Below are positions 28,554 to 50,153 of a stretch of DNA of 64,000 nucleotides, piece by piece. Made by a program: the position numbers and the translations under genes. The DNA lies in assembly GCA_041650735.1 (NCBI GenBank), contig JBAZKP010000001.1, positions 240,786-304,785 on the forward strand, given 5' to 3'. Every line of letters begins with the position of its first letter. Position 1 is the first letter of the stretch. This DNA is from an archaeon. Lineage in GTDB: Archaea > Iainarchaeota > Iainarchaeia > Iainarchaeales > JAAZKV01. Under the pieces are notes generated by a model. It was not told the origin of the DNA. It did no database searches and worked only from the letters and a program-made list of their open reading frames with translations.

Positions 28554-29771
28554 TTAGAAATATTTCATCATTATTTTTATTAAACCAGGGCGTTTAATTA
28601 GTTTCTTAGTAAAAAGAATTGCTTTTTCAGTTTTATTCAAGCTTCCGTCCCCTATTTTTAAGGCATCATCCATTGAAATGCTTTCAGCTAAATAATTAAA
28701 ATCATCATCGCTTAATTGTTCAAGCAAATGCCTTGATTTCAATCTGCGTTTTAATTCATTTCCCCTCAAATCAAACCATTCTTTTGTATAAGTTCCAATA
28801 AAATCATCAGTAAATTTATTTGCTTTTATTGCTCTTAGTGCAACTTGGGCAGCTAATCTACCGCCTTCCATTGCTATCCCTATTCCTCCACCGTGAATAG
28901 GATCAACCATGTGCCCTGCGTCGCCCGCAACAAGCAAATTATCAGCAGTCATTTTTTCAAGGAATCCTCCAACAGGTATTCCTCCTGCATTAACCTCTAT
29001 TATTGAGCCATTTTTCAGTCCTGGTTGTTGTTCAATCCATCTATCAAGGTAGTCTTTTGCAGTTAATTTTGTTTGTGATGAAACATACGCTCCTATCCCT
29101 ATTCCTACATTTGCTGTTCCGCCTCTTTTAGGAAAAATCCAGATATACCCTCGTGGAGCAACTTCAGTTCCAAAATATAAATGCAAACAGTTTTCATCAT
29201 ACCCTGAAATGCCTGTCATTTCATATTGGTATCCTGAATCAGTGTCATTCAAATTATTTTTTGTATTCAATCCGAGCATTCTTGCAGCAAGAGAATCAAT
29301 TCCGTCGCAGGCAAGAATAATTTTTCCTTTGAATTCTTTTATCTGATTATTAACTTCTACTTTTAATGTAACAATTCCATTTTCTCTTTTTGCTTCTATT
29401 ACTTGGTGTTTTAGCAGGATTTTAGCCCCTTTTTTTACTGCTTCTATAGCAAGATTTTTTTCAAACATTTTTCTTTCAAGAACATATCCCAGGATTTTTT
29501 TTTCTTTCATTTTTACTTCTTTCCCTTTAGGGCTATATAACACAGCTCCTTTGATCTCTTGTACTGCCCATTCAGGTGTTGGCTTTAAATTCATTATTCC
29601 AAACCAGCGGTTGCTTAGCCCTTCAGCACATCTTTTTGGGCATCCGATTTCCTGTTTTCTGTCAAGAATAAGCACATTTGCTTTTCCTTCTGCGAGTTCA
29701 AGTCCTGCCGCTAACCCTGATGGCCCAGCCCCTATGAGGATAGCATCGTAAATGATTTCTTTTCCAGCCAT
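28554..29771 (-). CDS. Geranylgeranyl reductase (digeranylgeranylglycerophospholipid reductase), FAD-dependent
   Basis: MAGKEIIYDAILIGAGPSGLAAGLELA dinucleotide-binding N-terminus; GDAGHMVDPIHGGGI. Start set at ATG 29771 because the upstream region encodes the ferredoxin in another frame. Confidence 0.8.
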   Translation of the reverse strand: MAGKEIIYDAILIGAGPSGLAAGLELAEGKANVLILDRKQEIGCPKRCAEGLSNRWFGIMNLKPTPEWAVQEIKGAVLYSPKGKEVKMKEKKILGYVLERKMFEKNLAIEAVKKGAKILLKHQVIEAKRENGIVTLKVEVNNQIKEFKGKIILACDGIDSLAARMLGLNTKNNLNDTDSGYQYEMTGISGYDENCLHLYFGTEVAPRGYIWIFPKRGGTANVGIGIGAYVSSQTKLTAKDYLDRWIEQQPGLKNGSIIEVNAGGIPVGGFLEKMTADNLLVAGDAGHMVDPIHGGGIGIAMEGGRLAAQVALRAIKANKFTDDFIGTYTKEWFDLRGNELKRRLKSRHLLEQLSDDDFNYLAESISMDDALKIGDGSLNKTEKAILFTKKLIKRPGLIKIMMKYF

Positions 29772-29784
29772 TCTTTCACCAGGA

Positions 29785-29964
29785 TTACTTTTTTTCAAGT
29801 TGCATTGCTCCAACAGGGCAAATATTTGTGCATGCTCCGCATGAAATACATTTTTTTTCATCAACAAAAATTCTTGTATCTTTCAAGACTATTGCTTGAA
29901 CAGGGCACACTCCAACGCATGCTCCGCAATATAAGCACTTATTTGAATTGTTTTTTACAACCAT
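29785..29964 (-). CDS. 2x[4Fe-4S] ferredoxin (59 aa), not in ORF track
   Basis: MVVKNNSNKCLYCGACVGVCPVQAIVLKDTRIFVDEKKCISCGACTNICPVGAMQLEKK carries two CxxCxxCxxxCP motifs. Its stop lies 13 nt upstream of the GGR start. Confidence 0.7.
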   Translation of the reverse strand: MVVKNNSNKCLYCGACVGVCPVQAIVLKDTRIFVDEKKCISCGACTNICPVGAMQLEKK

Positions 29965-30052
29965 TTTTTCACCAGTTTTTAATAAAGAAAATTCTTGTTA
30001 GTAGAATTTAAAAACCTGCTTTGCCTACCCTAATTTTAGAATTTTTTATTTG

Positions 30053-30637
30053 CTATTCCAGGAATTGCTCATATTTTTCATAATTAAACCTGTAAAGGAA
30101 GCGTTTGATTTTTTGTTTTTGGAAGGAATATTTTTTTATTATCTCTGCTTTCTTTCCTTTGTATTCATTAAACTCATGTTCTTGTGTGGGGTCAAGAAGC
30201 AGGGAATCTTCCCCTAATTCAGTAAGAACAAATGCGTGTGTTTTCAGGTTATCTAATTCAGCAATAATTACTTCTACCTTGTTATCTCCTAATGATTTCA
30301 TTGTTGCGCATAAAAAAACCGCTAAATCTTCATCATCTGCAACTTTTATTTCTAGAATTTCTCTTGGTGCGAGCCAGTAATTTATATTTAGGTCTGCATC
30401 AACAAAGGAAATATCTTTTTTTACAAAATCAAATGTTTCTTGCAAGACTTTTTCATAGTCTTTTTCAAAGGAATAATCGGGGCTTTTGAAATCCTCTACA
30501 AAGGATTGTACTGACAAATCAGAGCCATCAACAAGGGTTTTTATTTCCCCTATGGTGCGTTTTTCCCTTTCATTGATAATATCAGAGTATTTCTCAAGCA
30601 AGTACTTGCACAGCTTAATTTCCTTTTCCAAACCCAT
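30053..30637 (-). CDS. Hypothetical acidic protein
   Basis: 194 aa ORF; no family recognised. Confidence 0.35.
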   Translation of the reverse strand: MGLEKEIKLCKYLLEKYSDIINEREKRTIGEIKTLVDGSDLSVQSFVEDFKSPDYSFEKDYEKVLQETFDFVKKDISFVDADLNINYWLAPREILEIKVADDEDLAVFLCATMKSLGDNKVEVIIAELDNLKTHAFVLTELGEDSLLLDPTQEHEFNEYKGKKAEIIKKYSFQKQKIKRFLYRFNYEKYEQFLE

Positions 30638-30743
30638 AATATCTATACATAATTTAATGGGAAAGGCTTAAAAAAAAGCTTGTTAAATTTAAGGAATATT
30701 GCTTGTTAGGCTTCTTTGCCAAGGGTAAAAAGCCGTGCTTTTG

Positions 30744-32072
30744 TTAATATGCTTCCTCTTCAAATAAAACAGTTTTTCCTAAACACTTTTCAGTAAATTC
30801 TTTTATTTTAGAAAAATCTTTTTCAATTTCTATTTTTATAATGGATTTGGATTTCTGAATTCCCTCAATCTCTTCTTTTGCTTTATCAAGTTCGTGTTCA
30901 AATTCCTTTAACTTGATTTCTTCTTTTTCCAAATCCTTTTTTGCAACATTTTTTTCAAGTTCTTTGTTAATTTCGGTTTGCTTTTTTTGTATTTCATTCA
31001 TTTTCCAGAAAACCTTTCCGAAAAAATCAAAATTAATTATTTCCTGTAATGCCTCGAGTCGTTTTTCCCTTTCTTTATCCTTCAGTTCAACCATATTATC
31101 TTCAATTGCTTTTTTTATTTCCACAAGGACCTTTTTGAATAACTCTGCTTTCGGATCTTTTTTTAGGGCAATTATTGGGTTAACCAAGAATTGCTCAAGC
31201 ATTTCTTTTTCTTCTCTTGAAATCTTCCACCTTCCTGAATCAACAAGCTGTTTAAATCTTTGAAGAGGCCTGTCGATGTTCAAAAGAAGGGCAGAGATTT
31301 CTGTTTTAACTTCTTGTTTTTTGTTCATCAAATTAGTTATTTCTTCTTCAAGATGTTTAATCTCAACCATTTCTTTCCCGGTTTTTTTCTGCAACACTCT
31401 TTCCTTTTGTTCAAGAATCCGTTTTTCTTTTTCAGTTAATTTATTTATGAGCTCTTTTTCCTGGTTCTCTAGCACTAAATAATCTTTCTTCTTTTTTATA
31501 GCCAAACCTACTTTTTCTTTTATTTTTTCAAATTCAAATAATTCTTTTTCTTTTGAGAAAGTTTTGTTCATTTCATTAAAAATATTTAGTATTTCTTGCA
31601 ATGTTTCCCCGAGCTCTTTCATTTCTTCTTTGAAATAAAAACTTGTATAAATAATGTTTTTTCTGAATGCAATTATTTCTCCCGTGAGTATTGAATAGCT
31701 TTCCCCTGAATACTGCCTTGCTTCATCCAGAGTTTTTCCTTTGTCTTTAGGATCAAGTTTTTCAATAAGTCTTTTTAGCTGTGTTTCAAGCTGCTTTTTT
31801 GATGTGAGGGCAGCTTTGTTAAACCGTTCATTTTCTTTTCCTTGCAACTCTTTTCCCGAAATGACTTTTAATAAATTAGTGCTTTTGCTATGTAAATATT
31901 TGACTTCAGAAATTTTTTTTCCTGAAAAATTTTCAAGTTCTCTTTTCTTTAGTATAAATTCCTTTTCTATAAGCAAAGGCACATCCTCAATCCTTATTCT
32001 TATTACCGCGTGCTCTTTTTTGAATAATCCTTTGACGGTTTTAGGAATTTTTGCAATTAAGGAAAAAACCAT
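30744..32072 (-). CDS. Coiled-coil hypothetical protein (start set at internal ATG; track start 32174)
   Basis: E/K-rich heptad sequence; no family recognised. Confidence 0.35.
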   Translation of the reverse strand: MVFSLIAKIPKTVKGLFKKEHAVIRIRIEDVPLLIEKEFILKKRELENFSGKKISEVKYLHSKSTNLLKVISGKELQGKENERFNKAALTSKKQLETQLKRLIEKLDPKDKGKTLDEARQYSGESYSILTGEIIAFRKNIIYTSFYFKEEMKELGETLQEILNIFNEMNKTFSKEKELFEFEKIKEKVGLAIKKKKDYLVLENQEKELINKLTEKEKRILEQKERVLQKKTGKEMVEIKHLEEEITNLMNKKQEVKTEISALLLNIDRPLQRFKQLVDSGRWKISREEKEMLEQFLVNPIIALKKDPKAELFKKVLVEIKKAIEDNMVELKDKEREKRLEALQEIINFDFFGKVFWKMNEIQKKQTEINKELEKNVAKKDLEKEEIKLKEFEHELDKAKEEIEGIQKSKSIIKIEIEKDFSKIKEFTEKCLGKTVLFEEEAY

Positions 32073-32190
32073 GTTTAGATTAGGGATTAAATGTTTATAA
32101 AAGTGTACCAGCACGAGTCTTTTTTCGCAGATACTTCGCCGGCATTTTGCCCAAATAATGTTTATAACCTCCACTAAATAATTATTCTTT

Positions 32191-33642
32191 ATGTATTGCT
32201 CAGGACCAACAGGGGAAAGAAATGAAGAAGCGTTTTTTCAAATGCTTGACTTAATGGCCATTGAGATAAAAAAACGTGATGATTTTGTAGTTGTTTTTCA
32301 TCATGATGCTGATGGTTGTGCTGCAGGAGCTATTGCAGTAAAAGCTTTGCAAAGGGAAGGAAAAAAAGTTTTAAATATTTGCTTAAAACAGCTTTACAAG
32401 GAAAATATTTCCGAGATAAAGGCGCTCGGAAAAAATTTTTTATTTGTTGATTTTGGCTCGGGTCAGCTTGATTATTTAATAGAAGCTTTTGATGATAATT
32501 TTTTTGTTTTAGATCACCATCAACCCCCTGCTTTGCATGAAACTCTTATTAAGAGCCGGAGGCATGTGAATCCAATGCTTTTTGGTATTAACGGGGGAAC
32601 AGAACTAAGCGGAGCAGGAGTAACCTTTTTTTTTGCTCTCGCACTTAACAAAAAGAATTTTGATTTAAGCGTTCTTGCAGTGATAGGCGCTCTTGGGGAT
32701 ATGCAGGATTTTAATGCAAACTCAGAACTTATTGGCTTAAACAAGAAAGCGCTTGATATTGCGGTCAAAAACAAGCTAATTGAAGTAAAAAAAGATTTAC
32801 GGTTATACGGAAGAGTTTCCAGGCCCCTTGTTTCTTTTCTTGTTTTTTCTTCAAATCCAGTGCTTCCAGGATTAACCGCAAATGAAGATAATTGCAAAGC
32901 TTTTTTTCAGCAGTTAAGTATTCCTCTTAAAGATTCATTTACTGATCGCTGGCTTTCATACAATGATTTAAGTGAAGAGCATAGACGCGAATTAACCTCA
33001 GCATTAATTCTTTTATTAGCGGAAAATAATATGCCTGAATGGAAAATAAAAGAATTGGTTGGGGATGTTTATACTTTTAAAAAAGAAAATCCCTTAAGTC
33101 CGTTAAGTGATGGGAAAGAATTTGCAACTCTTCTCAATGCGTGCGGAAGAAACAAGCGTTCAGACATAGCGTTAGCAGTTTGTATGGGTAACAGAAAAGA
33201 GGCTTATTTTGAAGCCTTGTCCTTAATGGACCAACATAGAGAAAATTTGCGTAAAGGAATACAATTTATTCAGCAAAATGGTATTGAAGAAAAAAAAAGT
33301 TATTATTTTTTTGACGCAAAAGAAACAATTGATGAATCAATTGTTGGGATAATTGCAGGAATGCTTTACGGATCAATGTTGGAAGAAAATAAACCCATAA
33401 TTGCCTTAGCAAGGAACCATGACGGCACGGTAAAAGCTTCTGGAAGAGCAACATCAGCATTAGTACGCAGGGGGCTGAATTTAGGTAAAGCATTCAAAGA
33501 AATAGGATTGGAAATTGAAGGAGTTGAAGGAGGGGGGCACAGAATTGCAGGGGGCGCAAAAATCCCTTTAGAAAAAATAAATCTTTTTCTTAAGTTGCTT
33601 GAAAAAAAATTTGAAGAACAATTAAATATTTCTACTATTTGA
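32191..33642 (+). CDS. DHH-family phosphoesterase with DHHA1 domain (RecJ/Cdc45/GAN-like)
   Basis: DHH motif VVVFHHDADGCAAGAIA, DHHA1 motif GGGHRIAGGAKI, 483 aa. Confidence 0.6.
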   Translation: MYCSGPTGERNEEAFFQMLDLMAIEIKKRDDFVVVFHHDADGCAAGAIAVKALQREGKKVLNICLKQLYKENISEIKALGKNFLFVDFGSGQLDYLIEAFDDNFFVLDHHQPPALHETLIKSRRHVNPMLFGINGGTELSGAGVTFFFALALNKKNFDLSVLAVIGALGDMQDFNANSELIGLNKKALDIAVKNKLIEVKKDLRLYGRVSRPLVSFLVFSSNPVLPGLTANEDNCKAFFQQLSIPLKDSFTDRWLSYNDLSEEHRRELTSALILLLAENNMPEWKIKELVGDVYTFKKENPLSPLSDGKEFATLLNACGRNKRSDIALAVCMGNRKEAYFEALSLMDQHRENLRKGIQFIQQNGIEEKKSYYFFDAKETIDESIVGIIAGMLYGSMLEENKPIIALARNHDGTVKASGRATSALVRRGLNLGKAFKEIGLEIEGVEGGGHRIAGGAKIPLEKINLFLKLLEKKFEEQLNISTI

Positions 33643-34052
33643 ATTCCCCTCTATGAATGGGTCTTATTGATTCAATTATTCTGCCGCATCGCAGGCAGCG
33701 AAAACTATCTGTTTGCACAATCCATTGCTCGTTTTTTCTCCAGTTTTCAAAAGATTCTATGGGCCCCCCACATTCCTTGCAACAAAGAACCCCCACACAA
33801 TCACAATTTTAATTTTAGTAAAGTTCAAAAAGGTCTTTAGCTTTAAAAATCTTTTGGGATGATTTTTTCAAAAAATAAATTTTAATTATATTAAATTATT
33901 GTATTAGTTATCAAAGGTTGGTTTTAAGGCAAGGCATTTTCCCAAGCAAAGCCTTTTTAACAAAATCATTGTAATTGTTATTAATTAAAAGCTTTGATTA
34001 TTAAGGATTAATTTTTTGAGGGGATAAGTTGGTTTCAGATAAGGAAGCAGAA

Positions 34053-35114
34053 ATGAGCATAAAAGATTTTTTGAAATTGAAGGTTCCTGAGGTAGAAAAA
34101 GAAATAGAAAAATATATTCCGCGAAAAGCCACAAAGAACTGGATAGAAAGTGCGTTAGGTAAAACGATTTTTGAACTTGATTTGGAAGCATATACTAAAG
34201 GAGTCAATAATCCTATATGGGATTTGCTTGATCGCGGGGGGAAAAGATTCAGACCAATAATGGCTTGCATTTGTGCAGAAGCGGTAGGCGGAAAATGGGA
34301 AGATGCTTTGAAATTAGCCCCAATGGTTGAACTAATCCATAATGGAACTTTGATGCAGGATGATGTTGAAGATGATTCAATTGCAAGAAGAGGAAAACCT
34401 TGTACTCACAAAATATTTGGCATTGATACAGCAGTTAATACAGGAACGATAATGTATTATTGGCCGCTTGCAAAAATAATGAATGATGAATTTAATATTG
34501 GAAAAGAAAAGAAAATAATGATTTATGATTTATATGCGCGGGAATTATTGCGCGTTTGTTCAGGTCAAGCATGGGACATTGAGTGGCACCATGGAGGATA
34601 TGTTCCAACAGAAGAACAGTACTTGAACATGTGCTTATCAAAAACAGGGGTGCTAACAAGATTTGCTTGCCAGCTCGGAGCAATAACAGGTAACGCAACA
34701 AAAAAACAATATGAAGCCCTTGGGGATTTTGGTCAAATAGTTGGGGTGGGGTTCCAAATACAAGATGATATATTGGAGTTAACGGAAAGTTCTTTTAAAG
34801 AAAAAAAAGGGAGTATTGGTGGAGACATTCACGAAGGAAAAAGAACACTTATTGTAATAAGAACATTACAAAAAGCAACAGAACAAGACAAAAAGCGTTT
34901 AATAGAAATACTTGATTCACACACAAGTGACGAAAAAATAATTGCAGAAGCGCTTAGTATAATAAATAAATATGATGGGATTCCTTATGCAAAAAAACGT
35001 GCTGAAGAATTAGTGCTTGAAGCATGGAAGAAAGTTGACAAAGTTCTTCCTATTAGCAATGCAAAAAAAACTTTGAAGAGCTTTGCAGAATATCTTGTTG
35101 ACAGAAAAATATAA
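34053..35114 (+). CDS. idsA: Geranylgeranyl diphosphate synthase (short-chain trans-prenyltransferase)
   Basis: FARM LMQDDVEDDSIARRGKP and SARM GFQIQDDILE. ATG 34053 has an AGGAAG RBS; the track start 34029 is TTG. Confidence 0.8.
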   Translation: MSIKDFLKLKVPEVEKEIEKYIPRKATKNWIESALGKTIFELDLEAYTKGVNNPIWDLLDRGGKRFRPIMACICAEAVGGKWEDALKLAPMVELIHNGTLMQDDVEDDSIARRGKPCTHKIFGIDTAVNTGTIMYYWPLAKIMNDEFNIGKEKKIMIYDLYARELLRVCSGQAWDIEWHHGGYVPTEEQYLNMCLSKTGVLTRFACQLGAITGNATKKQYEALGDFGQIVGVGFQIQDDILELTESSFKEKKGSIGGDIHEGKRTLIVIRTLQKATEQDKKRLIEILDSHTSDEKIIAEALSIINKYDGIPYAKKRAEELVLEAWKKVDKVLPISNAKKTLKSFAEYLVDRKI

Positions 35115-35158
35115 ACTATGAATAAAGTATAGGGTAATAAGGTTGTTTGGGTGTTCAA

Positions 35159-36205
35159 ATGGTTTCAGTGATTGAAAAAAGAAAAATAGAGCACATAGAA
35201 TTATGCTCGAAAAAAAATGTTTCTTTTACTAAGAAGACAACTTTGCTTGAGGATGTTGAATTAAATTACAAAGCCCTTCCTGAATTGGATTTTAAAGAAG
35301 TGAATTTGGGTACAGATTTTCTAGGAAAGAAATTTTCTTTCCCTTTTATTGTATCAGCAATAACCGGGGGTGCGCAGGAATCAAAAAAAATTAATCTTGA
35401 TATTGCGCAGGCTTGCCAGGAAACAGGAATAGGGATGGGTTTAGGGAGCATGAGAGCAATGCTTCAGCATCCTTCGCTTACAGAAACTTACTTTGTGAGA
35501 GATGCAGCTCCAGATATTTTTCTTGCAGGAAATATTGGGGCAGCACAATTAAAGCAATTTACTATTGAACAGGTGAATGAAGCGCTTCAAGCGCTTGAAG
35601 TGGATGCGCTTGCAATTCATGTTAATGCTGCGCAGGAAGCAGTGCAACCCGAAGGAGACACTGATTTTACAGGAGTAATATCCAAGATAGGGGAGTATGC
35701 AGAAAAAATTACTGTCCCTGTTTATGTAAAAGAGGTGGGGCACGGAATTAGTTATGAACTTGCAATGGCTTTAAAGGAAACAAAAATAAAAGCAATTGAT
35801 GTACAAGGCGCAGGAGGCACTTCCTGGACAACAGTTGATGCAATGAGGCACAAAAACAGTTATGGATTGACTTTTAGTGAATTTGGTATCCCTACAGCAG
35901 TTTCGCTAATTGAAACAAAAAATGCTTTGCAGGGCGCTGATAAAAAAATAATTGCTTCAGGGGGAATACGCACAGGGATAGATGCTGTGAAATCAATTAT
36001 ATTAGGGGCTGATATTGCGGGGGCGGCTTTGCCAATAATAAAAGCGCAACAAAAAAAAGGAGTTAAAGGAATTACTGCTTATTTAAGGACTATTAAAAAA
36101 GAAATGGAAATAACTTCCTTCTTGGTTGGGTGCAAAGATATTAATGAATTGCATCAAGAAAAACCTATTATTTTAGGAAAACTTAAAGATTGGCTCAATC
36201 AATAA
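35159..36205 (+). CDS. fni: Isopentenyl-diphosphate delta-isomerase, type 2 (FMN-dependent)
   Basis: RKIEHIELC N-terminus and the GAGGTSW FMN-site motif. Track start 35147 is TTG. Confidence 0.8.
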   Translation: MVSVIEKRKIEHIELCSKKNVSFTKKTTLLEDVELNYKALPELDFKEVNLGTDFLGKKFSFPFIVSAITGGAQESKKINLDIAQACQETGIGMGLGSMRAMLQHPSLTETYFVRDAAPDIFLAGNIGAAQLKQFTIEQVNEALQALEVDALAIHVNAAQEAVQPEGDTDFTGVISKIGEYAEKITVPVYVKEVGHGISYELAMALKETKIKAIDVQGAGGTSWTTVDAMRHKNSYGLTFSEFGIPTAVSLIETKNALQGADKKIIASGGIRTGIDAVKSIILGADIAGAALPIIKAQQKKGVKGITAYLRTIKKEMEITSFLVGCKDINELHQEKPIILGKLKDWLNQ

Positions 36206-36272
36206 AAAATTGAGTATGCTGGTTTGAAAATATTTCTAAAAAACAAAACACTTCGTTGTTTGCCGAACCCCT

Positions 36273-36307
36273 GTTCGTCTTTTTGGAAAGGTTTTTATAT
36301 TCCCTTC
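36273..36307 (+). promoter_or_regulatory. Copy A of duplicated promoter-like element (TTCGTCTTTTTGGAAAGGTTTTTATATTCC)
   Basis: 30-nt identity with 40500–40533. Contains BRE/TATA-like GGAAAGG-TTTTTATATT. Lies upstream of the GltD-like/HMGR operon. Confidence 0.45.
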
Positions 36308-36392
36308 CCCACAAATGTTGTTTGCGCTGGTGAGCGTTTGGGCTTGCCTTTGGAAGAACAATTTCAAAACAAATTAAAAATATGGTGTTTAA

Positions 36393-37739: not shown

Positions 37740-37798
37740 GATCAAAGGATAAAAATTATTTTATAAAAAAAGGTTTATTGAAAATTAAGGGTGAAAAA

Positions 37799-40441: not shown

Positions 40442-40499
40442 TTCTTTTTAAATTAGTTCCTAAAGAAAAAGAAATCGAACGTCAATCAACGAATTTAAC

Positions 40500-41032: not shown

Positions 41033-41048
41033 AAGTTGAGTTGATTTT

Positions 41049-42094: not shown

Positions 42095-42772
42095 ATGAGG
42101 AAAATAATAACCAAAGGAAATTACTCTGAAGAAGCTGCAGTAGTGCTTAAAAAAGCAGGGCACCTCTCGTTAGCGCAAAGATTATTTTCAAAAGAAGCAA
42201 GGCAAAAACATGCAGTTGCCCAGAAATTAGCGCAATATTTAATTGAAGCGGATTTAAAGAGAAATCCAGGAATGAGACAACAAGTTATTGATTCCAAAAA
42301 GTCAAGACTTGTGATGAATTCTGCTGGAGAACTCGTTGCTACAAGTGGGGTTGAGCTCGGAGCAACAGTAATACCAACAAAAAGAGTTTTTGGAAAAATG
42401 ATGCCTCAAGTACAAGAGGTGTCGTTAAAAAATATTGAAAAAGGAAAACCCCCTTTTTCATGGAGTATGATTGAAGCAGAGCAAGAAATAAAAGCAGGCA
42501 GGAAAAGCCCCGCAAAAAAACAAAAAAAAGCAATAGGGATTTACGGGCAAGATTTTATAATAGAAGAATATGCAAAACGGGTTTTAAGTGCAGGAGGGAA
42601 GCCACAGATAGAGCGAACAATAATAAACAAAAAAGAGGTTAAAGCATTTAAAGTAACAAATGTTTCTTTGTCAGGCAAAAAAAGAGTTTCAATGAAACTA
42701 AAAAACGGGAAAACACTTCACTTTATAGTTAATGAGAAATTTGCAGAAAAATTAAAAGAATTTTTTAAGTGA
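42095..42772 (+). CDS. Hypothetical protein inserted between HMGCS and thiolase (225 aa)
   Basis: AGGTGA RBS. 9-nt and 6-nt gaps to its neighbours imply co-transcription. No family recognised. Confidence 0.45.
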   Translation: MRKIITKGNYSEEAAVVLKKAGHLSLAQRLFSKEARQKHAVAQKLAQYLIEADLKRNPGMRQQVIDSKKSRLVMNSAGELVATSGVELGATVIPTKRVFGKMMPQVQEVSLKNIEKGKPPFSWSMIEAEQEIKAGRKSPAKKQKKAIGIYGQDFIIEEYAKRVLSAGGKPQIERTIINKKEVKAFKVTNVSLSGKKRVSMKLKNGKTLHFIVNEKFAEKLKEFFK

Positions 42773-42778: not shown

Positions 42779-43936
42779 ATGAAAGTTGGAATATTAGGAA
42801 TTGGGATTACCAAGTTCGGTGAAATCTGGGACAGAGGCTTACGCGAGCTTCTCCTTGATGCACAACTACGTGCACTAAACGATGCAAAAATAGCTCCACA
42901 ACAAATAGATTCCTTATTTACTGGAAACATGTGCGGAGACTCACTCTCAGGGCAATTACACATAGGAGCAATGGCTACAGAAAATCTGAACATTGACAAA
43001 CCAAGTCTAAGAGTAGAAGGAGCATGCGCCTCAGGTTCATTAGCATTACGCCAAGGAATACAAGCAATCGAAAGCGGAGCAGCAGAAATAGTAATGGTTT
43101 CAGGCGTAGAAAAAATGACTGATGTTTCAACAGAACAAGTAACCACAACATTAATGGGAGCAGGAGATGAAGAGCTAGAAGGATTCAATGGATTAACCTT
43201 TCCGGGATTATATGCTTTGCTTGCAAATGCTTACCTCTCCAAGTACCCAAAATTATCAAGAGACTTATTAGCTGATGTATCAGTAAAAAATCATTTCCAC
43301 GGCGCAAGAAATTCTTATTGCCAATTCAAAAACGAAATAACAAAAGAAACAGTGTTAAATGCTCCAATGGTTGCAAACCCACTGACTTTATTTGATTGCT
43401 CTCCAATTACAGATGGAGCAGCTTCAATAATAATTGCAAATGAAAAAATTTCTAAAAAAATGAATTCAGAAGTTTATATTACTGGTTCAGGCTTAGCAAC
43501 AGATTCATTATCTTTAGCAAGAAGAAGCACTTTAACTTCAATTCCTGCGGGAAAAAAAGCTGCAGAACAAGCATATGCGCAAGCAGGAATAACAGTAAAA
43601 GATGTTTCATTTGCAGAAGTGCATGACTGTTTTACAATAGCAGAAATAATGGCAGTAGAAGCACTAGGCTTTGCAAAAGAAGGAGAAGCATACAAGTTAT
43701 ATGAAAACAAAGAAACTTACTTTGACAGTAAACACCCAATAAATACTTCTGGGGGATTAAAAGCATGCGGACACCCTGTGGGGGCAACAGGAATAAAACA
43801 AGCAGTAGAAGCAACAATGCAATTAAGAGGAGAAGCAAAAGGAAGACAAGTAACAAACGCAAAAATAGGGGTAACACATAATGTTGGAGGAAGCGGAGCA
43901 ACAGCTTGCATACACGTATTCAGGAAAATGAAATAA
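42779..43936 (+). CDS. Acetyl-CoA C-acetyltransferase (archaeal thiolase)
   Basis: Thiolase fold with active-site Cys in VEGACASGS and C-terminal NVGGSGATA. Confidence 0.85.
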   Translation: MKVGILGIGITKFGEIWDRGLRELLLDAQLRALNDAKIAPQQIDSLFTGNMCGDSLSGQLHIGAMATENLNIDKPSLRVEGACASGSLALRQGIQAIESGAAEIVMVSGVEKMTDVSTEQVTTTLMGAGDEELEGFNGLTFPGLYALLANAYLSKYPKLSRDLLADVSVKNHFHGARNSYCQFKNEITKETVLNAPMVANPLTLFDCSPITDGAASIIIANEKISKKMNSEVYITGSGLATDSLSLARRSTLTSIPAGKKAAEQAYAQAGITVKDVSFAEVHDCFTIAEIMAVEALGFAKEGEAYKLYENKETYFDSKHPINTSGGLKACGHPVGATGIKQAVEATMQLRGEAKGRQVTNAKIGVTHNVGGSGATACIHVFRKMK

Positions 43937-43958: not shown

Positions 43959-44171
43959 ATGACAAGGGTATTTGAAAAATTAAAAAACATTTTTGGTGGA
44001 AAAGAAGAGCAAGTAGAAGAAAATCCACAAAGACTAGGTTGTACAAAAAAAAGAGAAGAACAGGAAGAAAGTGAAGTAGGGCAAAGATGGAAAATTGCAA
44101 AAAAGTGGAGAGAAAATAAACAAATGCAAGAATCACTAATAAAAAGAAACAATTTTAAGAAAAAAATTTAA
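43959..44171 (+). CDS. Small hypothetical charged protein (70 aa)
   Basis: AAAGGTGAAA RBS; sits between the thiolase and DUF35 genes. Confidence 0.3.
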   Translation: MTRVFEKLKNIFGGKEEQVEENPQRLGCTKKREEQEESEVGQRWKIAKKWRENKQMQESLIKRNNFKKKI

Positions 44172-44205: not shown

Positions 44206-44604
44206 ATGTTTCGAGAAAGCCCAATAATAAGATGGAGAAATTACAATGATAGATACAAACTGAAAGGGTATAAATGCACTAAATGTGGTGCAACCTTTTT
44301 TGAAAAAAAAGGGTTATGCCCGTGCGGAAACCTAGACTTTGCTGAAATGGATTTCAGTGGAAAAGGAAAAATAGTTTCTTTTACCCAAATACATGCCGGC
44401 CCAGAAGTATTTGCAAGCCAAACCCCTTATTGTATAGCAATAATTGATTTAGTTGAAGGGGCTCGCATAACAGGACAAATAGTTGACTGCAAATACGAAG
44501 ACTTAAAACAAGGAATGGAAGTAGAAGGAGTATTTAGGAAATTTTATAAAAGTGGGGAAAAAGGAATAATACACTACGGAACAAAATTTATTCCAAAATT
44601 TTAA
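44206..44604 (+). CDS. DUF35 OB-fold/Zn-ribbon protein (thiolase–HMGCS scaffold subunit)
   Basis: Zn ribbon CTKCGATFFEKKGLCPCG followed by an OB-fold segment. Track start 44197 is GTG. Confidence 0.75.
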   Translation: MFRESPIIRWRNYNDRYKLKGYKCTKCGATFFEKKGLCPCGNLDFAEMDFSGKGKIVSFTQIHAGPEVFASQTPYCIAIIDLVEGARITGQIVDCKYEDLKQGMEVEGVFRKFYKSGEKGIIHYGTKFIPKF

Positions 44605-44620: not shown

Positions 44621-44884
44621 ATGAATTTAAGTACAATAAAAAATACTATTCTTCGAACATTCCTTGCACTAATATTATTTTTCATAGCCTATCTTCCTTT
44701 ATTTGCCACAACCCCCTGCGATTGTTTAGCTAGTACTTGTGCTGCAGGAAAAATGAGAGGATTTTTTTTATGCAACGCATGCAACTGCCTAACAATACAA
44801 GATGCATTAATTCAATTCTTCTTATATGGGGTAACGCCATTTATAGTATTTTTCATAATAGCATATTTTTTGATTAGAGATTAA
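44621..44884 (+). CDS. Small Cys-rich two-helix membrane protein
   Basis: Loop TPCDCLASTCAAGKMRGFFLCNACNC between two hydrophobic helices. Confidence 0.4.
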   Translation: MNLSTIKNTILRTFLALILFFIAYLPLFATTPCDCLASTCAAGKMRGFFLCNACNCLTIQDALIQFFLYGVTPFIVFFIIAYFLIRD

Positions 44885-44901: not shown

Positions 44902-45843
44902 ATGTCTGTGGTAGGGAAAGGGTATGCAAAAGTGATTCTTTTTGGGGAGCACTTTGTCGTTTATGGTTTGCCGGGGATAGCATCTGCACTGGATAAATTT
45001 GTTCAAGTAGAAGTACAAAAAGTAAAGGATTCTGATGATGTTGTTTTTGATGACAAAGTATTCAAAGAAAAAGTATCGATGAAAGAAAATTCAGAACACA
45101 TAAAATGCAAGTTATTCAATGCGATGTTTAAAGAAGAAGAATTTGTTCAAAAAAAAGGAATAAAATTTATGATAAACTCAACTTTTTCCCCTGGTGGTGG
45201 AATGGGTTACTCAGCAGCCCTAAATGTAGGAATAGCAAGAGCAATGAATAATTTGTTTGAGTTAGGTTGGAAGGATGAAAAAATAAATGAAGTAGGATAC
45301 AAAGGAGAATGCATCTCACACGGTGCCCCATCAGGAATAGATAATACTTGTGCAACATACGGTTCATTAGTGTGGTTTGAAAAAAATATGGAAGGTGGAA
45401 AAAACAAAATAAAGCCTTTCAAAACAGGGAAACCATTATTGTTAGTTATTGTGGACACAGGAATAAAGCACGACACGAAGGAGGCTGTTGCAGGGGTAAA
45501 AAAAAGGAAAGAAGAAAATCCTGAAGAGTATAAGAAAATTTTTTCTGAAGCAAAAAAAATTGTCGCAAAAGCAAAAAAAGAATTAAGTTATGGGGGAATA
45601 CAAGAAATAGGAAAACTAATGAACCAAAACCAAGAATTACTTAAAAAAATAGGGGTTTCAAGTCCAGAAATAGAACAAATAATAAAAATTTCTTTATATG
45701 AAGGGGCATTAGGAGCGAAACTAACCGGTGCTGGGTGCGGAGGAAATGTTTTGGTTCTATGCGAAAATGAAGCACAACAAAACAAAATAATTGTTTCACT
45801 GCAAACAAAAGGGTTCAGAGCAATAAAAGCAAAAATAAATTAG
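44902..45843 (+). CDS. mvk: Mevalonate kinase (GHMP family)
   Basis: GKVILFGEHFVVYG N-terminus and GHMP motif SPGGGMGYSAA. Track start 44890 is TTG. Confidence 0.8.
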   Translation: MSVVGKGYAKVILFGEHFVVYGLPGIASALDKFVQVEVQKVKDSDDVVFDDKVFKEKVSMKENSEHIKCKLFNAMFKEEEFVQKKGIKFMINSTFSPGGGMGYSAALNVGIARAMNNLFELGWKDEKINEVGYKGECISHGAPSGIDNTCATYGSLVWFEKNMEGGKNKIKPFKTGKPLLLVIVDTGIKHDTKEAVAGVKKRKEENPEEYKKIFSEAKKIVAKAKKELSYGGIQEIGKLMNQNQELLKKIGVSSPEIEQIIKISLYEGALGAKLTGAGCGGNVLVLCENEAQQNKIIVSLQTKGFRAIKAKIN

Positions 45844-45886: not shown

Positions 45887-46450
45887 ATGAAAATAATTGT
45901 TGCTGTAACAGGGGCTTCAGGGGCAAATTATGCGCTCGCCTTACTCAAGGAGCTTAAAGAAAAAAAAGTTGAGGTACACTTAGTTATAAGCGAATGGGCG
46001 GGAGAAGTATTTAAAGAAGAAACAGGCAAGAAAATTTCTTTACTAAAAAAATTTGCGAAAAAAACTTATTCAAACAAAGACTTAGCGACGAGCATTTCTT
46101 CAAGTTCTTTTCTAGTTGATGGAATGATAATAATTCCTGCAAGCATAAAAACTTGTTCAGAAATAGTGCATGCGCACACAAGTACATTAATCACAAGATG
46201 TGCGGACAATATGTTAAAAACAAAAAAACCATTAGTAATAGGGGTAAGAGAAACCCCATTAAGCGGGCCAGCGCTTGAAAACCTGTGGAAGCTAAGCTTA
46301 TACGGTGCAATAATTTTCCCACTAAGCCCAGGGTTTTACCACAAACCAAAAAAAATATCTGACATAGAGGACTTTATTACAGGGAAAGCATTAGACTTAT
46401 TAGGGATTACCAATAATACATTCGTACGCTGGGAAAGCAAAAAAAGGTGA
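45887..46450 (+). CDS. ubiX: UbiX-like flavin prenyltransferase (prenyl-FMN synthase)
   Basis: MKIIVAVTGASGANYALALLKELK.. flavoprotein fold; 187 aa. Confidence 0.8.
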   Translation: MKIIVAVTGASGANYALALLKELKEKKVEVHLVISEWAGEVFKEETGKKISLLKKFAKKTYSNKDLATSISSSSFLVDGMIIIPASIKTCSEIVHAHTSTLITRCADNMLKTKKPLVIGVRETPLSGPALENLWKLSLYGAIIFPLSPGFYHKPKKISDIEDFITGKALDLLGITNNTFVRWESKKR

Positions 46451-46454: not shown

Positions 46455-47729
46455 ATGAGTTTCCGTGATTTTGTAGCAAAAACAGATTATGTAATAAGTA
46501 AGCCCGTGTCAAAAAACTTGGAAGCAAGCGGAATAATTTACTCCGCAGGCGACAAAAGTATAATGTTTAACAAAATAAAAGAATCCCAAAATAGGGTTGT
46601 GGCAAATGTTTTTGCCTCGAAAGAAAAGGTGGCAAAGTACCTTGGTTGTGAAGTGAAAGACCTTGTTCCAAAAATGATTAAAGCACTAAATAATCCGACA
46701 AAACCACAAATTGTTTCAAAAACTGATCACACAGAGATTGAAGTTGATTTGGAAAAATTACCAATTTTAGTTCACACTGAGAAAGACGGTGGACCTTATG
46801 TTTCGAGCGGAATAGTAATAGTAAGGGATGCAACAATAGGGCAAAATGTCTGCTACCATAGAGGAATGGTAATAGGAAAAAATAAACTTGCATTTAGAAT
46901 ACTTGAAAGAAACACAATGGAATTACTCAAGAAAAATAATGGACAAATGAAAGCAGCTTACTGCATTGGGATTGGTGGAGAAACAGCTTTAGCAGCAGCA
47001 ATGGCTCCAACATTAGGGGTAAATGAATTAGAAATAGCAAACTCCATTCAGTCAATAGACACAGTAAAAGCAAAATTGTTTGATGCATTGCTTCCTGCAG
47101 ATGCAGAAGTAATAATGGAAGGCGCCCTAAATTTAAATGAAAAACATTCTGAAGGTCCATTCGTTGACTTAACGGGCACTTCAGACATAATAAGGCAAGA
47201 ACCAGTATTCACTGTAGAAAAAATTTATGTAAGACCAAATTATATTTGGCACGCACTCTTACCAGGAGGATTTGAACACAAAATCCTGATGGGGATGCCA
47301 AGAGAACCAACAGTATTTAATGAAGTAAAAAAAGCAGGAGTAGATGTAATTGATGTAAGTGTTAACCCGGGCGGGAGCGCATGGTTCCACGTAATAATAA
47401 AAATTAATAAGAAAAATGAGGAAGACGGAAAGAAAACAATTGATGCGGCAATGAAAGGGCACACCTCAGGAAAACACTTCTTTGTTGTAGACAATGACAT
47501 AGATATTTACAATCCATTGGAAGTGGAATGGGCAATGGCAACAAGATTCCAAGCTGACAAGAACCTGTACATATTTACAAAACAAAAGGGATCCTCACTT
47601 GATGCAAGCGCAGACCAAATAACAAGAGAAACCGCAAAAGCAGGATTCGATTTAACAATGTGTCTAGACAAAGTACAAAAAATGACGAGAACAAAATTTC
47701 CTGAATTTGATATAAAAAAATATTTATGA
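46455..47729 (+). CDS. UbiD-family decarboxylase (candidate trans-anhydromevalonate 5-phosphate decarboxylase)
   Basis: UbiD fold. Positioned between ubiX and the acnX genes, as in the archaeal alternative MVA pathway. Confidence 0.75.
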   Translation: MSFRDFVAKTDYVISKPVSKNLEASGIIYSAGDKSIMFNKIKESQNRVVANVFASKEKVAKYLGCEVKDLVPKMIKALNNPTKPQIVSKTDHTEIEVDLEKLPILVHTEKDGGPYVSSGIVIVRDATIGQNVCYHRGMVIGKNKLAFRILERNTMELLKKNNGQMKAAYCIGIGGETALAAAMAPTLGVNELEIANSIQSIDTVKAKLFDALLPADAEVIMEGALNLNEKHSEGPFVDLTGTSDIIRQEPVFTVEKIYVRPNYIWHALLPGGFEHKILMGMPREPTVFNEVKKAGVDVIDVSVNPGGSAWFHVIIKINKKNEEDGKKTIDAAMKGHTSGKHFFVVDNDIDIYNPLEVEWAMATRFQADKNLYIFTKQKGSSLDASADQITRETAKAGFDLTMCLDKVQKMTRTKFPEFDIKKYL

Positions 47730-47746
47730 AAATGGTAGGGTTTTAT

Positions 47747-48931
47747 ATGGATTTAACTAAACAAGAAAAGGAAATGCTTGAGGGAAAACAAGGTAGTGCA
47801 GTAAAAAAATCCATGGAGATTTTGGTTGCATTAGGAGAAATTTATAATGCAAAAAAACTGGTTGATGTGGAAAGCGTGCAAATAGCAGGAGTAAGTTATG
47901 ACAACCTTGGTGACGCAGGATTAGAATTTTTAAGTGAATTAGCAAAAGATGGAAAAGTAAAAGTGCTCACAACACTAAACCCGGCAGGAATGGATTTAGA
48001 AAATTACAAAACACTAGGAATTTCGGAAGAATTTGCAGTAAAACAAAGAATGGTAATTGAAGCATTTGCAAAAATGGGAATAATTACTACCTGCACCTGT
48101 ACACCTTATTTAGTAGGAAATTCTCCTCACTTCAACCAGCATATTGCTTGGAGCGAAAGCAGTGCAGTTGCTTACGCAAATTCAGTTTTAGGGGCAAGGA
48201 CAAATAGAGAAGGCGGGCCAAGCGCATTAGCAGCAGCCCTTACAGGAAAAACTCCTTTGTATGGAATGCAATTAGATGAAAACAGACAAGCAAGAATAAA
48301 AGTAATGGTTAAAGGACTTGGAAGAGGAACAGAAAGATTTGGTGCACTCGGAAAAGCAATTGGGGAAAAAATCAAAGACAAACCAGCGTACATAGTAGGA
48401 GTGAAAGAAGCAACCATTGAGGAATTAAAAAGCCTTTCAGCAAGCATTGCTACTTACGGCGGAGCAGCAATTTTTCATATGAAAGGAATAACTCCAAACA
48501 AAACAAAAGCCCCAAAAGAAAAAATTATTATAACAAAAGAAGATATTGAAAACGCATTAAAATCAATGAACGATGACTGCGAAGTAGATTTTGTGAGTGT
48601 GGGGTGCCCGCACGCAAGCATAAAAGAAATAGCAAAACTAGCGGAATTATTGAAAGGAAAAAAAGTCAAGAAAGAATTTTGGGTAACAACAGCAAGGCCG
48701 ACAAAAAGAATTGCTGATGCTGTGGGCTACTCAAAAACAATTGAAGAAGCTGGGGCAAAATTCGCTGCAGACACATGTTGTGTCGTTGCGCCAATAAAAG
48801 GAAGATTCAAGTGTTTAGCAACAGATTCAGCAAAAGGGTGCTATTATGCAGCAGCAAAAAACAAATTTAAAATAAAAATAATGCCGGTAGAGAAAATTGT
48901 AGAAGAAGCATGCAAGGAGATGAAACAATGA
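47747..48931 (+). CDS. Aconitase X large subunit (candidate mevalonate 5-phosphate dehydratase, large subunit)
   Basis: AcnX family. Translationally coupled to the small subunit through an ATGA overlap. Confidence 0.75.
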   Translation: MDLTKQEKEMLEGKQGSAVKKSMEILVALGEIYNAKKLVDVESVQIAGVSYDNLGDAGLEFLSELAKDGKVKVLTTLNPAGMDLENYKTLGISEEFAVKQRMVIEAFAKMGIITTCTCTPYLVGNSPHFNQHIAWSESSAVAYANSVLGARTNREGGPSALAAALTGKTPLYGMQLDENRQARIKVMVKGLGRGTERFGALGKAIGEKIKDKPAYIVGVKEATIEELKSLSASIATYGGAAIFHMKGITPNKTKAPKEKIIITKEDIENALKSMNDDCEVDFVSVGCPHASIKEIAKLAELLKGKKVKKEFWVTTARPTKRIADAVGYSKTIEEAGAKFAADTCCVVAPIKGRFKCLATDSAKGCYYAAAKNKFKIKIMPVEKIVEEACKEMKQ

Positions 48932-49320
48932 CTACACTCAACGGAAGAAAAATTTGTGCAGGAAAAGCAGAAGGAGAAGCGCTTGTGTCAAAACAAGGAA
49001 TCTCTTTTTTTGGAGGAGTTGACCCTGACACAGGAAAAGTGGCAGAAGCGGGTCATGAGCTTGAAGGCCAGTCAATAACAGGAAAAATACTTGTTTTTCC
49101 CCAAGGGAAAGGTTCAACAGTAGGAAGCTATGCGTTGTACAGAATGAAAAAACAAGGCACAGCCCCAAAAGCAATAATCAATTCCGAATGCGAAACAATA
49201 GTTGCAGTAGGCGCAATAATATCAGAGATACCTTGTGTAGACAAAATAGATATAACACAAATCAAAACAGGGCAAAAGATGAAAGTCGACGGAGACAAAG
49301 CAATTGTTGAAATTCAATAA
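48928..49320 (+). CDS. Aconitase X small subunit (candidate mevalonate 5-phosphate dehydratase, small subunit)
   Basis: GKAEGEALVS..ISFFGGVDPDTGKV..GKILVFPQGKGSTVGSY motifs; AAGGAG RBS. Confidence 0.7.
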   Translation: MTTLNGRKICAGKAEGEALVSKQGISFFGGVDPDTGKVAEAGHELEGQSITGKILVFPQGKGSTVGSYALYRMKKQGTAPKAIINSECETIVAVGAIISEIPCVDKIDITQIKTGQKMKVDGDKAIVEIQ

Positions 49321-49352
49321 TTTTTTTATTTAATCTTTCCTAAGGCGATTGA

Positions 49353-50153
49353 ATGACTGACTTGTTTGTAGTTAAATTTGGGGGTTCTTCCATAACCAAA
49401 AAAGCGGACAACAAATTTGAGATAAATAAAGAGATACTTAAACAATGTGCAAAAGAACTTGCGAGTGCGATGAAGAAAAAACAAATGAAAGTTGCTTTAG
49501 TTTGTGGGGTAGGACCATTCGGGCACACAAACGTAAAAATGTACAATTTGAATAATGGGATAACAACGGAAGAACAAATGAAAGGAGTGGAAAAAACAAA
49601 CAAAGATTGCAATTTTGTGGGGCAATCAGTTGCAAAAGCACTTGAGAAAGAAGGAGTAAAAACAAAACTCATTCCAGGTTACGAAGTTTGCGAACAAAGC
49701 GATAAAAAAATAATTAAATTTGATTTTACTCTTTATGAGAAAGCGTTGAATGAAGGAAGTGTTCCAATAACAACAGGAATAATGGTAAAAGATGATAACC
49801 TCAAGTGGAGTGTAATGAGCGGAGACAAAGTAATTGCTCAATTAGCAAAACATTTCAAACCAAAAAAAGTATTAATGGGCACTGATGTTGATGGAATATT
49901 TACCGTAGATCCAAAAGTTGATGCAAAAGCCGAACTAATTGAAGAAATAACAAGAGGAAACGTTCCAAAAATCCTTGAAAAAGTAGGCGAATCAAAATCC
50001 GTTGATGTAACTGGTGGAATGAAAGGAAAACTAGAACAACTTTCTGAACAATTAAATGGAACGCCAGCGGAAATATTTAATTTATTCACAAAAGGAAACA
50101 TAGAAAAAGTTTTGACAGGAAAAAATGTTAAAGATACAAAAATAAAGCTTTAA
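49353..50153 (+). CDS. ipk: Isopentenyl phosphate kinase (amino-acid kinase family)
   Basis: VVKFGGSSIT, GHT.., MGTDVDGIFTVDP, VDVTGGM. Confidence 0.75.
   Translation: MTDLFVVKFGGSSITKKADNKFEINKEILKQCAKELASAMKKKQMKVALVCGVGPFGHTNVKMYNLNNGITTEEQMKGVEKTNKDCNFVGQSVAKALEKEGVKTKLIPGYEVCEQSDKKIIKFDFTLYEKALNEGSVPITTGIMVKDDNLKWSVMSGDKVIAQLAKHFKPKKVLMGTDVDGIFTVDPKVDAKAELIEEITRGNVPKILEKVGESKSVDVTGGMKGKLEQLSEQLNGTPAEIFNLFTKGNIEKVLTGKNVKDTKIKL

Follow-up and report, generated by a model that had tools for sequence, protein, structure and literature searches.

Gene content of the locus

The 64-kb stretch of DNA analyzed here, referred to as the window, is part of the metagenome-assembled genome of a DPANN archaeon of the Iainarchaeia (Diapherotrites) and belongs to a 209-kb metagenomic contig. 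The proteins most similar to its UbiD carry the names Candidatus Iainarchaeum or Diapherotrites. At positions 28554-50153 it contains isoprenoid biosynthetic genes that encode, in order, geranylgeranyl reductase (GGR) and a small ferredoxin, a short-chain trans-prenyl diphosphate synthase, type 2 isopentenyl diphosphate (IPP) isomerase (IDI2), an NfnB-like oxidoreductase, class II HMG-CoA reductase (HMGR), HMG-CoA synthase (HMGS), acetoacetyl-CoA thiolase, a DUF35 scaffold protein, mevalonate kinase (MVK), the flavin prenyltransferase UbiX, a UbiD-family decarboxylase, the large and small subunits of type II AcnX (AcnX-L and AcnX-S) and isopentenyl phosphate kinase (IPK) (Table 1). It is highly probable that this locus is a chromosomal, vertically inherited biosynthetic cluster of the Iainarchaeia that encodes the canonical archaeal mevalonate pathway.

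Families were assigned by comparing bit scores with the curated cutoffs of NCBIfam/TIGR models and by Pfam, and matches to PDB entries were found by sequence. Every gene named in the first-pass annotation of this DNA was recovered, with the same order and bounds, by open reading frame (ORF) listing and a profile search for each gene, and the curated threshold was passed wherever a cutoff applied, except for the prenyl synthase equivalog models. The HMGR scores 47 bits on the class I model, and its sequence groups with the class II enzymes, the NAD(P)H clade. A reading of this "degradative" type of HMGR as an enzyme of mevalonate catabolism was rejected, since the same operon system also encodes HMGS, thiolase, MVK and IPK. 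When AcnX-L is aligned to the Thermococcus kodakarensis structure 7cnr, cysteines are found at all three Fe-S positions (Cys110, Cys283 and Cys342). The AcnX-L stop codon overlaps the AcnX-S ATG in an ATGA sequence at 48928-48931, as had been noticed in the first reading of the sequence, and a second ATGA overlap joins UbiD to AcnX-L at 47726-47729. For GGR, the ATG at 29771 was taken as the start and the TTG start of the long ORF was set aside; the translation contains the PxxYxWxFP motif as PRGYIWIFP. The 59-amino acid ferredoxin is the probable electron donor to GGR, by analogy with the Methanosarcina acetivorans GGR and its cognate ferredoxin (PMC10821996). Here too a small 2x[4Fe-4S] ferredoxin is encoded immediately upstream in what appears to be a single operon, and the pairing is kept in approximately 12 relatives.

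Table 1. Positions of genes and control elements in the window, with the matches on which the assignments rest (aa, amino acids; nt, nucleotides)
Feature	Position	Strand	Evidence and context
RelA/SpoT homologue	6016-7776	+	TIGR00691 358 bits, below cutoff
tRNA-Met	12755-12831
XerA recombinase	15264-16217	-	247 bits vs cutoff 220
ORF of 1314 aa	22359-26303	-	No Pfam match
GGR, FAD enzyme	28554-29771	-	TIGR02032 229 bits vs cutoff 159; Pfam GGR_cat 1e-24
2x[4Fe-4S] ferredoxin, 59 aa	29785-29964	-	Pfam Fer4_7 5e-17; 13 nt upstream of GGR ATG
u194 (-), coiled-coil protein cc476 (-), archaeal RecJ nuclease (+, 32191-33642)	30053-33642		Between GGR and prenyl synthase
Short-chain trans-prenyl diphosphate synthase, GGPPS/IdsA-like	34029-35114	+	PF00348 214 bits
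IDI2	35147-36205	+	TIGR02151 388 bits vs cutoff 281
Promoter/operator copy 1	36253-36303	+	Degenerate palindrome 36253-36266 and 30-nt exact repeat TTCGTCTTTTTGGAAAGGTTTTTATATTCC 36274-36303; upstream of NfnB-like gene
NfnB/SudA/GltD-like Fe-S flavoprotein, NADPH-dependent oxidoreductase, 448 aa	36393-37739	+	Pfam Fer4_20 and Pyr_redox_2
Class II HMGR	37799-39085	+	TIGR00532 419 bits vs cutoff 260; PDB 1qax (P. mevalonii) 4e-118
u166 (basic) and ZIP metal transporter	39122-40441	-	Pfam Zip 8e-41; between HMGR and HMGS
Promoter/operator copy 2	40479-40529	+	Palindrome ACGTCAATCAACGA 40479-40492 and the same 30-nt repeat 40500-40529; upstream of u109/HMGS
u109, small basic ORF	40703-41032	+	First cistron after promoter copy 2; dN/dS vs L086 0.26
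Archaeal HMGS	41049-42086	+	NF003274 523 bits vs cutoff 244
u225, lysine-rich	42095-42772	+	Between HMGS and thiolase; dN/dS 0.06
Archaeal acetoacetyl-CoA thiolase	42779-43936	+	NF004720 500 bits vs cutoff 420
u70, small basic (lysine-rich) protein	43959-44171	+	Between thiolase and DUF35
DUF35 scaffold of thiolase/HMGS complex	44206-44604	+	Pfam OB_ChsH2_C and zinc ribbon; PDB 6esq_E 4e-28
u87, small hydrophobic Cys-rich ORF	44621-44884	+	Before MVK; called as gene on source contig
MVK	44902-45843	+	TIGR00549 249 bits vs cutoff 163
UbiX flavin prenyltransferase, predicted to make the cofactor of the UbiD enzyme	45887-46450	+	NF004685 206 bits vs cutoff 188
UbiD-family decarboxylase	46455-47729	+	TIGR00148 297 bits vs cutoff 245
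AcnX type II large subunit (phosphomevalonate dehydratase)	47726-48931	+	PF04412 485 bits; PDB 7cnr 2e-101
AcnX small subunit	48928-49320	+	NF003046 190 bits vs cutoff 163
IPK	49353-50153	+	NF040647 175 bits vs cutoff 120
PorC, PorD, PorA, two ORFs without family (165 and 107 aa, 52249-53084), PorB	50223-54008	+	NCBIfam and Pfam; pyruvate:ferredoxin oxidoreductase directly after IPK
GrpE-DnaK pair	60515-63106	+	Right end of window

Predicted pathway and transcription units

The gene set for a route from acetyl-CoA to IPP and dimethylallyl diphosphate (DMAPP) through trans-anhydromevalonate 5-phosphate, which had been proposed from the sequence, appears to be encoded here, together with the prenyl synthase and the GGR-ferredoxin pair. 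Three molecules of acetyl-CoA would be converted to HMG-CoA by thiolase and HMGS with the DUF35 scaffold, HMG-CoA would be reduced to mevalonate by class II HMGR, and mevalonate would be phosphorylated by MVK. Mevalonate 5-phosphate would then be dehydrated by AcnX-L/S to trans-anhydromevalonate 5-phosphate, which would be decarboxylated to isopentenyl phosphate by the UbiD-family enzyme with prenylated FMN made by UbiX. Phosphorylation by IPK would give IPP, IDI2 would equilibrate IPP and DMAPP, the trans-prenyl synthase would elongate the chain, and the prenyl chains would be saturated later by GGR with its own ferredoxin. We infer that the UbiD-family protein is the trans-anhydromevalonate-5-phosphate decarboxylase (AMPD). 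MVK is the sole GHMP-family protein in the 64-kb window, in which all ORFs of at least 300 amino acids were scanned, and phosphomevalonate kinase (PMK), diphosphomevalonate decarboxylase (DMD), PMD and M3K/MBD are not encoded there, in agreement with the absence of PMK and DMD reported by the first-pass annotation. In the literature, Diapherotrites are reported to lack most of these enzymes (PMC6107057). The same source described the locus as leading from acetyl-CoA to saturated geranylgeranyl diphosphate. This wording is loose: characterized archaeal GGRs reduce lipids of the digeranylgeranylglyceryl phosphate type (PMC10821996), and the lipid-assembly genes G1PDH, GGGPS, DGGGPS and CarS are not present in the window.

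The genes probably form four transcription units, namely ferredoxin-GGR, prenyl synthase-IDI2, NfnB-like-HMGR, and a long unit u109-HMGS-u225-thiolase-u70-DUF35-u87-MVK-UbiX-UbiD-AcnXL-AcnXS-IPK that may extend into PorCDAB. The trans-prenyl synthase and the ten core genes span approximately 16 kb. The idea of a single isoprenoid locus of approximately 21 kb is correct with respect to the gene set, but the locus is not contiguous, because nine unrelated or uncharacterized genes are interspersed in it. PorCDAB is predicted to supply acetyl-CoA and reduced ferredoxin, and its adjacency to IPK is kept in related loci (L008, L009, L011 and L013-L015). The two ORFs that separate PorA and PorB have no family match and are called as genes on the source contig. 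An ADP-forming acetyl-CoA synthetase is encoded farther downstream of PorCDAB.

Conservation of the cluster across genomes

Related loci were sampled in two scans, in which a UbiD alignment was run against species-representative genomes and the prenyl synthase against metagenome contigs. The window proteins were mapped by tblastn onto all 132 loci, which are numbered with the prefix L. In approximately 15 relatives, whose prenyl synthases are 73-96% identical to that of the window, the order GGR-Fdx-u194-cc476-RecJ-GGPPS-IDI2-NfnB-HMGR-(variable)-HMGS-thiolase-DUF35-MVK-UbiX-UbiD-AcnXL-AcnXS-IPK-Por is conserved, and the flanks and the unrelated interspersed genes are likewise conserved in close relatives. 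At approximately 50% identity, the distant Iainarchaeum loci L020, L024 and L083 still keep the core HMGR-HMGS-thiolase-DUF35-MVK-UbiX-UbiD-AcnXL-AcnXS-IPK(-IDI2), and L024 retains RecJ and the NfnB-like gene upstream. Other arrangements are found outside this group. Asgard loci of the Loki/Hod type have the order HMGS-HMGR-UbiD-AcnXLS-MVK-IPK-IDI2, with UbiX, GGPPS and GGR on the opposite strand, the order in Aenigmatarchaeota is GGPPS-MVK-UbiD-AcnXLS-UbiX-IPK-IDI2, and MVK/UbiD/AcnX subclusters are kept in Thorarchaeia, Bathyarchaeia and Chloroflexota.

Clustering of these genes had been thought exceptional for archaea, and the synteny comparison does not support this. The gene order is the same throughout the clade, clusters in Loki/Hod-type Asgard archaea are similarly near-complete, and at least nine of the ten core genes lie within 10 kb of UbiD in 17 of 39 fully flanked species-representative loci. 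This sample comes from the 80 best UbiD matches, so that DPANN, Asgard and Chloroflexota are over-represented and no conclusion extends to Euryarchaeota. The genes are clustered throughout the lineage, and this vertically inherited trait is of an already described kind.

Several individual loci differ from this picture or come from unexpected sources. In L005, a 740-kb contig (JGI 3300033153) whose UbiD is 59% identical to that of the window, the cluster is partly dispersed and only MVK-UbiX-UbiD-methyltransferase-AcnXLS are together; the gene that follows them encodes a TrmB-family regulator, and an AA_kinase-HAD fusion is encoded close by. Archaeal-type UbiD/AcnX genes are present on contigs binned as Nanopelagicaceae, Thermodesulfobacteriota and Brevefilum (L051, L043, L056, L065 and L076); L051, which carries a complete Loki-type mevalonate cluster, is probably a mis-binned Asgard contig. 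The Chloroflexota loci L081, L082 and L085 have the arrangement UbiD-AcnXLS(-UbiX).

Composition, flanking sequences and gene trees

The GC content at third codon positions is 0.252 in the cluster genes and 0.262 in the rest of the window (p = 0.26), and a codon-usage distance test likewise finds no difference (p = 0.21), so that the check for atypical composition suggested by the first-pass annotation returned a native signal. Total GC is slightly higher in the cluster genes (0.365 vs 0.339), with the excess at codon positions 1 and 2, where it is shared with RadA, PorA and PorB. XerA, encoded 12 kb upstream, is the sole recombinase in the window. No direct or inverted repeats flank the locus in the region around 24-58 kb, where besides a 30-nucleotide promoter repeat only low-complexity AT-rich matches were found. 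An integrated element or island bounded by tRNA-Met and a tyrosine recombinase, in a patch of low GC, was rejected because the recombinase is the archaeal XerA and the 3' end of tRNA-Met is not repeated elsewhere in the window, in which no att-like repeat was found.

In neighbor-joining trees the clade is monophyletic for 9 of 10 proteins and is joined most closely by other Iainarchaeia or DPANN as outgroups, which does not fit with the co-transfer of HMGR, UbiD and AcnX that had been envisaged. The exception is MVK, of which relatives have two paralogues. Tandem MVK genes are found in L008, L010, L011 and L012 and one copy in L003 and L007; type a proteins are 56-69% and type b proteins 37-42% identical to the window MVK, and both pass TIGR00549. 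Retention of only type a in the window and only type b in L003 suggests a duplication that was followed by differential loss.

A promoter and probable operator shared by two predicted operons

An exact direct repeat of 30 nucleotides, TTCGTCTTTTTGGAAAGGTTTTTATATTCC, for which 0 occurrences are expected by chance, precedes both the NfnB-like gene and u109/HMGS. Its 17-mer core is similar to a transcription factor B recognition element (BRE) and TATA box. When up to three mismatches are allowed, the core precedes the NfnB-like gene in 15 of 20 relatives and HMGS in 12 of 22, and it is found in none of 157 control upstream regions of nine other genes (eight cluster genes and PorC). When these promoters are aligned across relatives, a palindrome similar to ACGTCAATTGACGT emerges farther upstream, and a half-site, TTCGTC, abuts the core. 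In 46 close-clade loci (516 kb of sequence) there are 20 palindrome sites with at most two mismatches, compared with approximately 1.6 in shuffled sequence, and 19 of the 20 sites are 70-225 nucleotides upstream of the NfnB-like gene or HMGS. In the three distant Iainarchaeum loci, HMGR is likewise preceded by the half-site TTGACGAA. No RNA family was detected by Rfam in the long leaders that follow the shared promoter, at the gathering threshold across the window or at an E-value threshold across 36150-41100.

The NfnB-like-HMGR and HMGS-to-IPK units have the same conserved promoter, preceded in both by the palindromic operator, and are for this reason probably co-regulated by one transcription factor. 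The location of the palindrome upstream of the BRE/TATA suggests that this factor is an activator. Only papers on eukaryotes were retrieved when the literature was searched for a transcription factor that controls the archaeal mevalonate pathway, and no cis-regulatory element of that pathway was found described in the literature searched. The conserved control sequence before two operons of the cluster is what is new here, and the regulatory novelty is modest.

The NfnB-like gene

The protein encoded between IDI2 and HMGR matches the large subunits NfnB, NfnI-L and NfnII (PDB 4ylf_B, 5jca_L and 5vj7_A) at approximately 1e-85, with the Fer4_20 and FAD/NADPH domains of the NfnAB/NfnI (SudAB) large subunit. 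In contrast to those enzymes, no NfnA/SudB small-subunit ORF was found among the scanned ORFs of the window, and the gene lies in a mevalonate context with the mevalonate operator; electron bifurcation is not implied. The position of the gene is conserved in relatives, and because of this position and the shared operator we tie it to the mevalonate pathway. It is plausible that the protein is a ferredoxin:NADP+ oxidoreductase that feeds HMGR from Por-reduced ferredoxin. An NAD kinase gene is found between the NfnB-like gene and HMGR in L003 (1239-2036) and L024 (3533-4564), and is not at that position in the window; the L024 kinase is fused to a C-terminal winged-helix domain.

Genes interspersed in the cluster

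The nine interspersed genes are u194, cc476 (a coiled-coil protein of 476 amino acids), RecJ, u166, the ZIP transporter, u109, u225, u70 and u87. RecJ scores 472 bits on the RecJ_archaeal model (cutoff 360), and profile searches gave no convincing family match for u194 and cc476 and no match for u109, u225 and u87. The ratio of nonsynonymous to synonymous substitution rates (dN/dS), calculated against the closest relative L086, is 0.02-0.26 for u194, cc476, RecJ, u166, ZIP and u109, and also low for u225, and these seven are consequently regarded as real genes. u194, cc476 and RecJ (dN/dS 0.02-0.08) keep the same position in relatives, and u166/ZIP is a variable insertion found in only some of them.

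Between HMGS and DUF35, u225 and u70 are lysine-rich insertions in the HMGS-thiolase-DUF35 operon whose position is conserved in a subclade. Divergent homologues of u225, 26-29% identical, are found at the same position in nine relatives. A homology search retrieved only two near-identical proteins, and the AlphaFold2 model made from that two-sequence alignment was unusable (predicted local distance difference test score 48.6). u70 shares 35-44% identity with the ORFs that occupy its position in L003 and L011 and had no nucleotide match for a dN/dS estimate against the closest relative.

Discussion

The pathway predicted for the Iainarchaeia locus is the one described for Aeropyrum pernix, Methanosarcina mazei and T. 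kodakarensis, with the same MVK, two-subunit AcnX type II, UbiD-family enzyme with UbiX, and IPK. PMK and DMD are missing from the window, and the Fe-S ligands of the T. kodakarensis AcnX-L structure are conserved. Compared with most cultivated archaea, the locus has a class II instead of a class I HMGR and its genes are in one block instead of dispersed. The genes for all three components of the Methanothermococcus thermolithotrophicus thiolase/HMGS/DUF35 complex (PDB 6esq) appear to be in one operon here too, in the order HMGS-u225-thiolase-u70-DUF35. The two inserted genes encode lineage-specific basic proteins, for both of which there is evidence of purifying selection or of a conserved position.

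Much of this is an ordinary, well-annotated pathway locus. Earlier papers already describe clustered mevalonate genes, class II HMGR in DPANN and the presence of the archaeal gene set in Diapherotrites (PMC6107057, PMC11052028, PMC8407392). Hoshino and Gaucher (2018; PMC6107057) tabulated mevalonate gene synteny, which in archaea includes trans-prenyl synthases, detected HMGR-II in the DPANN, Asgard and TACK groups, and reported that Diapherotrites possess the archaeal gene set without PMVK or DPMD. A 2024 survey (PMC11052028) found that mevalonate genes are usually clustered and that the archaea-type route is present in most DPANN. A published study detected the pathway in 39.7% of Diapherotrites genomes, and according to a published report the anabolic capacity of the Iainarchaeota is enough for a free-living lifestyle. 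Like the bacterial, candidate phyla radiation and archaeal clusters of PMC6107057 and PMC11052028, the present locus has its mevalonate genes syntenic with a trans-prenyl synthase; the clusters of this clade are among the most complete, and the NfnB-like gene and the shared operator are not mentioned in those papers. The Loki/Hod-type Asgard clusters (e.g., L022, L059 and L078) have GGPPS, GGR and nine of the ten core genes no farther than 10 kb from UbiD, but differ in gene order, in having an HMGS only 25-30% identical, and in the absence of thiolase/DUF35 and NfnB-like genes. The locus mainly confirms that a DPANN lineage is likely to be able to make its own isoprenoid precursors, without needing to take them from a host.

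The first-pass annotation suggested that the locus might be transferable as a cassette. It would then be a genomic island through which a reduced DPANN host acquired its entire lipid-precursor pathway. The tight packing and mostly uniform direction of the genes would fit with such an island, as would their slightly raised overall GC, and the UbiD-AcnX subclusters in Chloroflexota bacteria imply that parts of the pathway crossed domains at some time. The GC excess, however, is confined to codon positions 1 and 2, codon usage is that of the rest of the window, and the only recombinase is a housekeeping XerA at a distance. There are neither flanking repeats nor a duplicated tRNA end, and housekeeping genes such as RecJ are located inside the locus and conserved along with it. 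The flanks are conserved across relatives, the order is kept down to approximately 50% identity, and the gene trees place the clade next to other Iainarchaeia and DPANN. A mobile cassette is for these reasons very improbable, and the result on that idea is clearly negative.

Some observations nevertheless weigh against a vertically inherited, canonical and specifically regulated pathway. The neighbor-joining trees are crude, and DPANN, Asgard and Chloroflexota may have exchanged the cluster as a unit in the distant past. The prenyl synthase falls below the IdsA/GGPPS equivalog cutoffs (IdsA 248 vs 468), and its chain length is consequently not established. Among the UbiD matches there was no solved structure or NCBIfam equivalog of the characterized Aeropyrum/Methanosarcina decarboxylases. 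The protein passes only the UbiD subfamily model, some sources name its homologues "2,5-furandicarboxylate decarboxylase", and its top solved-structure match is 6h6v/6h6x, labeled in the PDB as a 3-polyprenyl-4-hydroxybenzoate decarboxylase relative, which we take to be the furandicarboxylate decarboxylase HmfF. It could be argued from this that UbiX and UbiD act on an unrelated (hydroxy)aromatic acid or on furandicarboxylate and are merely located in the cluster, with the step after mevalonate phosphate performed in some other way. We consider this highly unlikely, given the overlap of UbiD with AcnX-L and its position directly before AcnX-L/S in approximately 70 loci of DPANN, Asgard, Bathyarchaeia and Chloroflexota, in most of which MVK and IPK are neighbors. 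There is no other decarboxylase, of the GHMP type, in the window, and according to published surveys most DPANN possess an AMPD of the UbiD type (PMC11052028). A further difficulty lies in the operator itself, because the window palindrome before u109/HMGS has three mismatches and the copy before the NfnB-like gene is degenerate. The core GAAAGGTTTTTATA resembles a canonical archaeal BRE/TATA, and the 30-nucleotide element might then be a generic strong promoter or a recent gene-conversion tract with no pathway-specific operator. That explanation is unlikely, if less so than the two preceding ones. No other site in the 64 kb fits the 14-mer core with fewer than two mismatches, the 17-mer and the palindrome have been kept at exactly two promoters even though synonymous sites have diverged (dS 0.3-0.5 vs L086), and the half-site recurs upstream of HMGR in distant Iainarchaeum loci.

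A vertically inherited mevalonate cluster with a conserved operator leads us to a more speculative model, which we consider possible but would not call probable. The mevalonate pathway of the Iainarchaeia would be a dedicated, redox-balanced regulon under one factor, which would bind the palindrome (approximately ACGTCAATTGACGT) just upstream of the shared BRE/TATA and co-control the NfnB-like and HMGR genes and the HMGS-to-IPK unit. The NfnB-like protein would be a pathway-dedicated ferredoxin:NADP+ oxidoreductase that supplies HMGR with electrons drawn from the neighboring pyruvate:ferredoxin oxidoreductase, and NAD kinase would be the ancestral companion of its gene, as in L003 and L024. 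From pyruvate to saturated isoprenoid, three ferredoxin electron pairs would be generated per C5 unit, two of them consumed by HMGR and one by GGR. Almost no regulators of archaeal lipid-precursor synthesis are known, and the conserved operator/promoter and the HMGR-linked NfnB-like gene may provide an entry to its regulation and reductant supply. The compact, co-directional and near-complete archaeal mevalonate operon is also a possible template for pathway engineering.

Other features of the window

Apart from the mevalonate locus, the window contains an archaeal signal recognition particle RNA and five tRNA genes. An ORF of 1314 amino acids is located in the stretch of lowest GC (0.26-0.29), and neither it nor the neighboring ORFs of 388 and 113 amino acids have matches. 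The long RelA/SpoT homologue contains HD, RelA_SpoT, TGS and ACT domains; long proteins of this family are uncommon in archaea and are usually considered bacterial acquisitions. The GrpE-DnaK pair at the right end of the window belongs to a chaperone system that is regarded as bacterial-derived in archaea.

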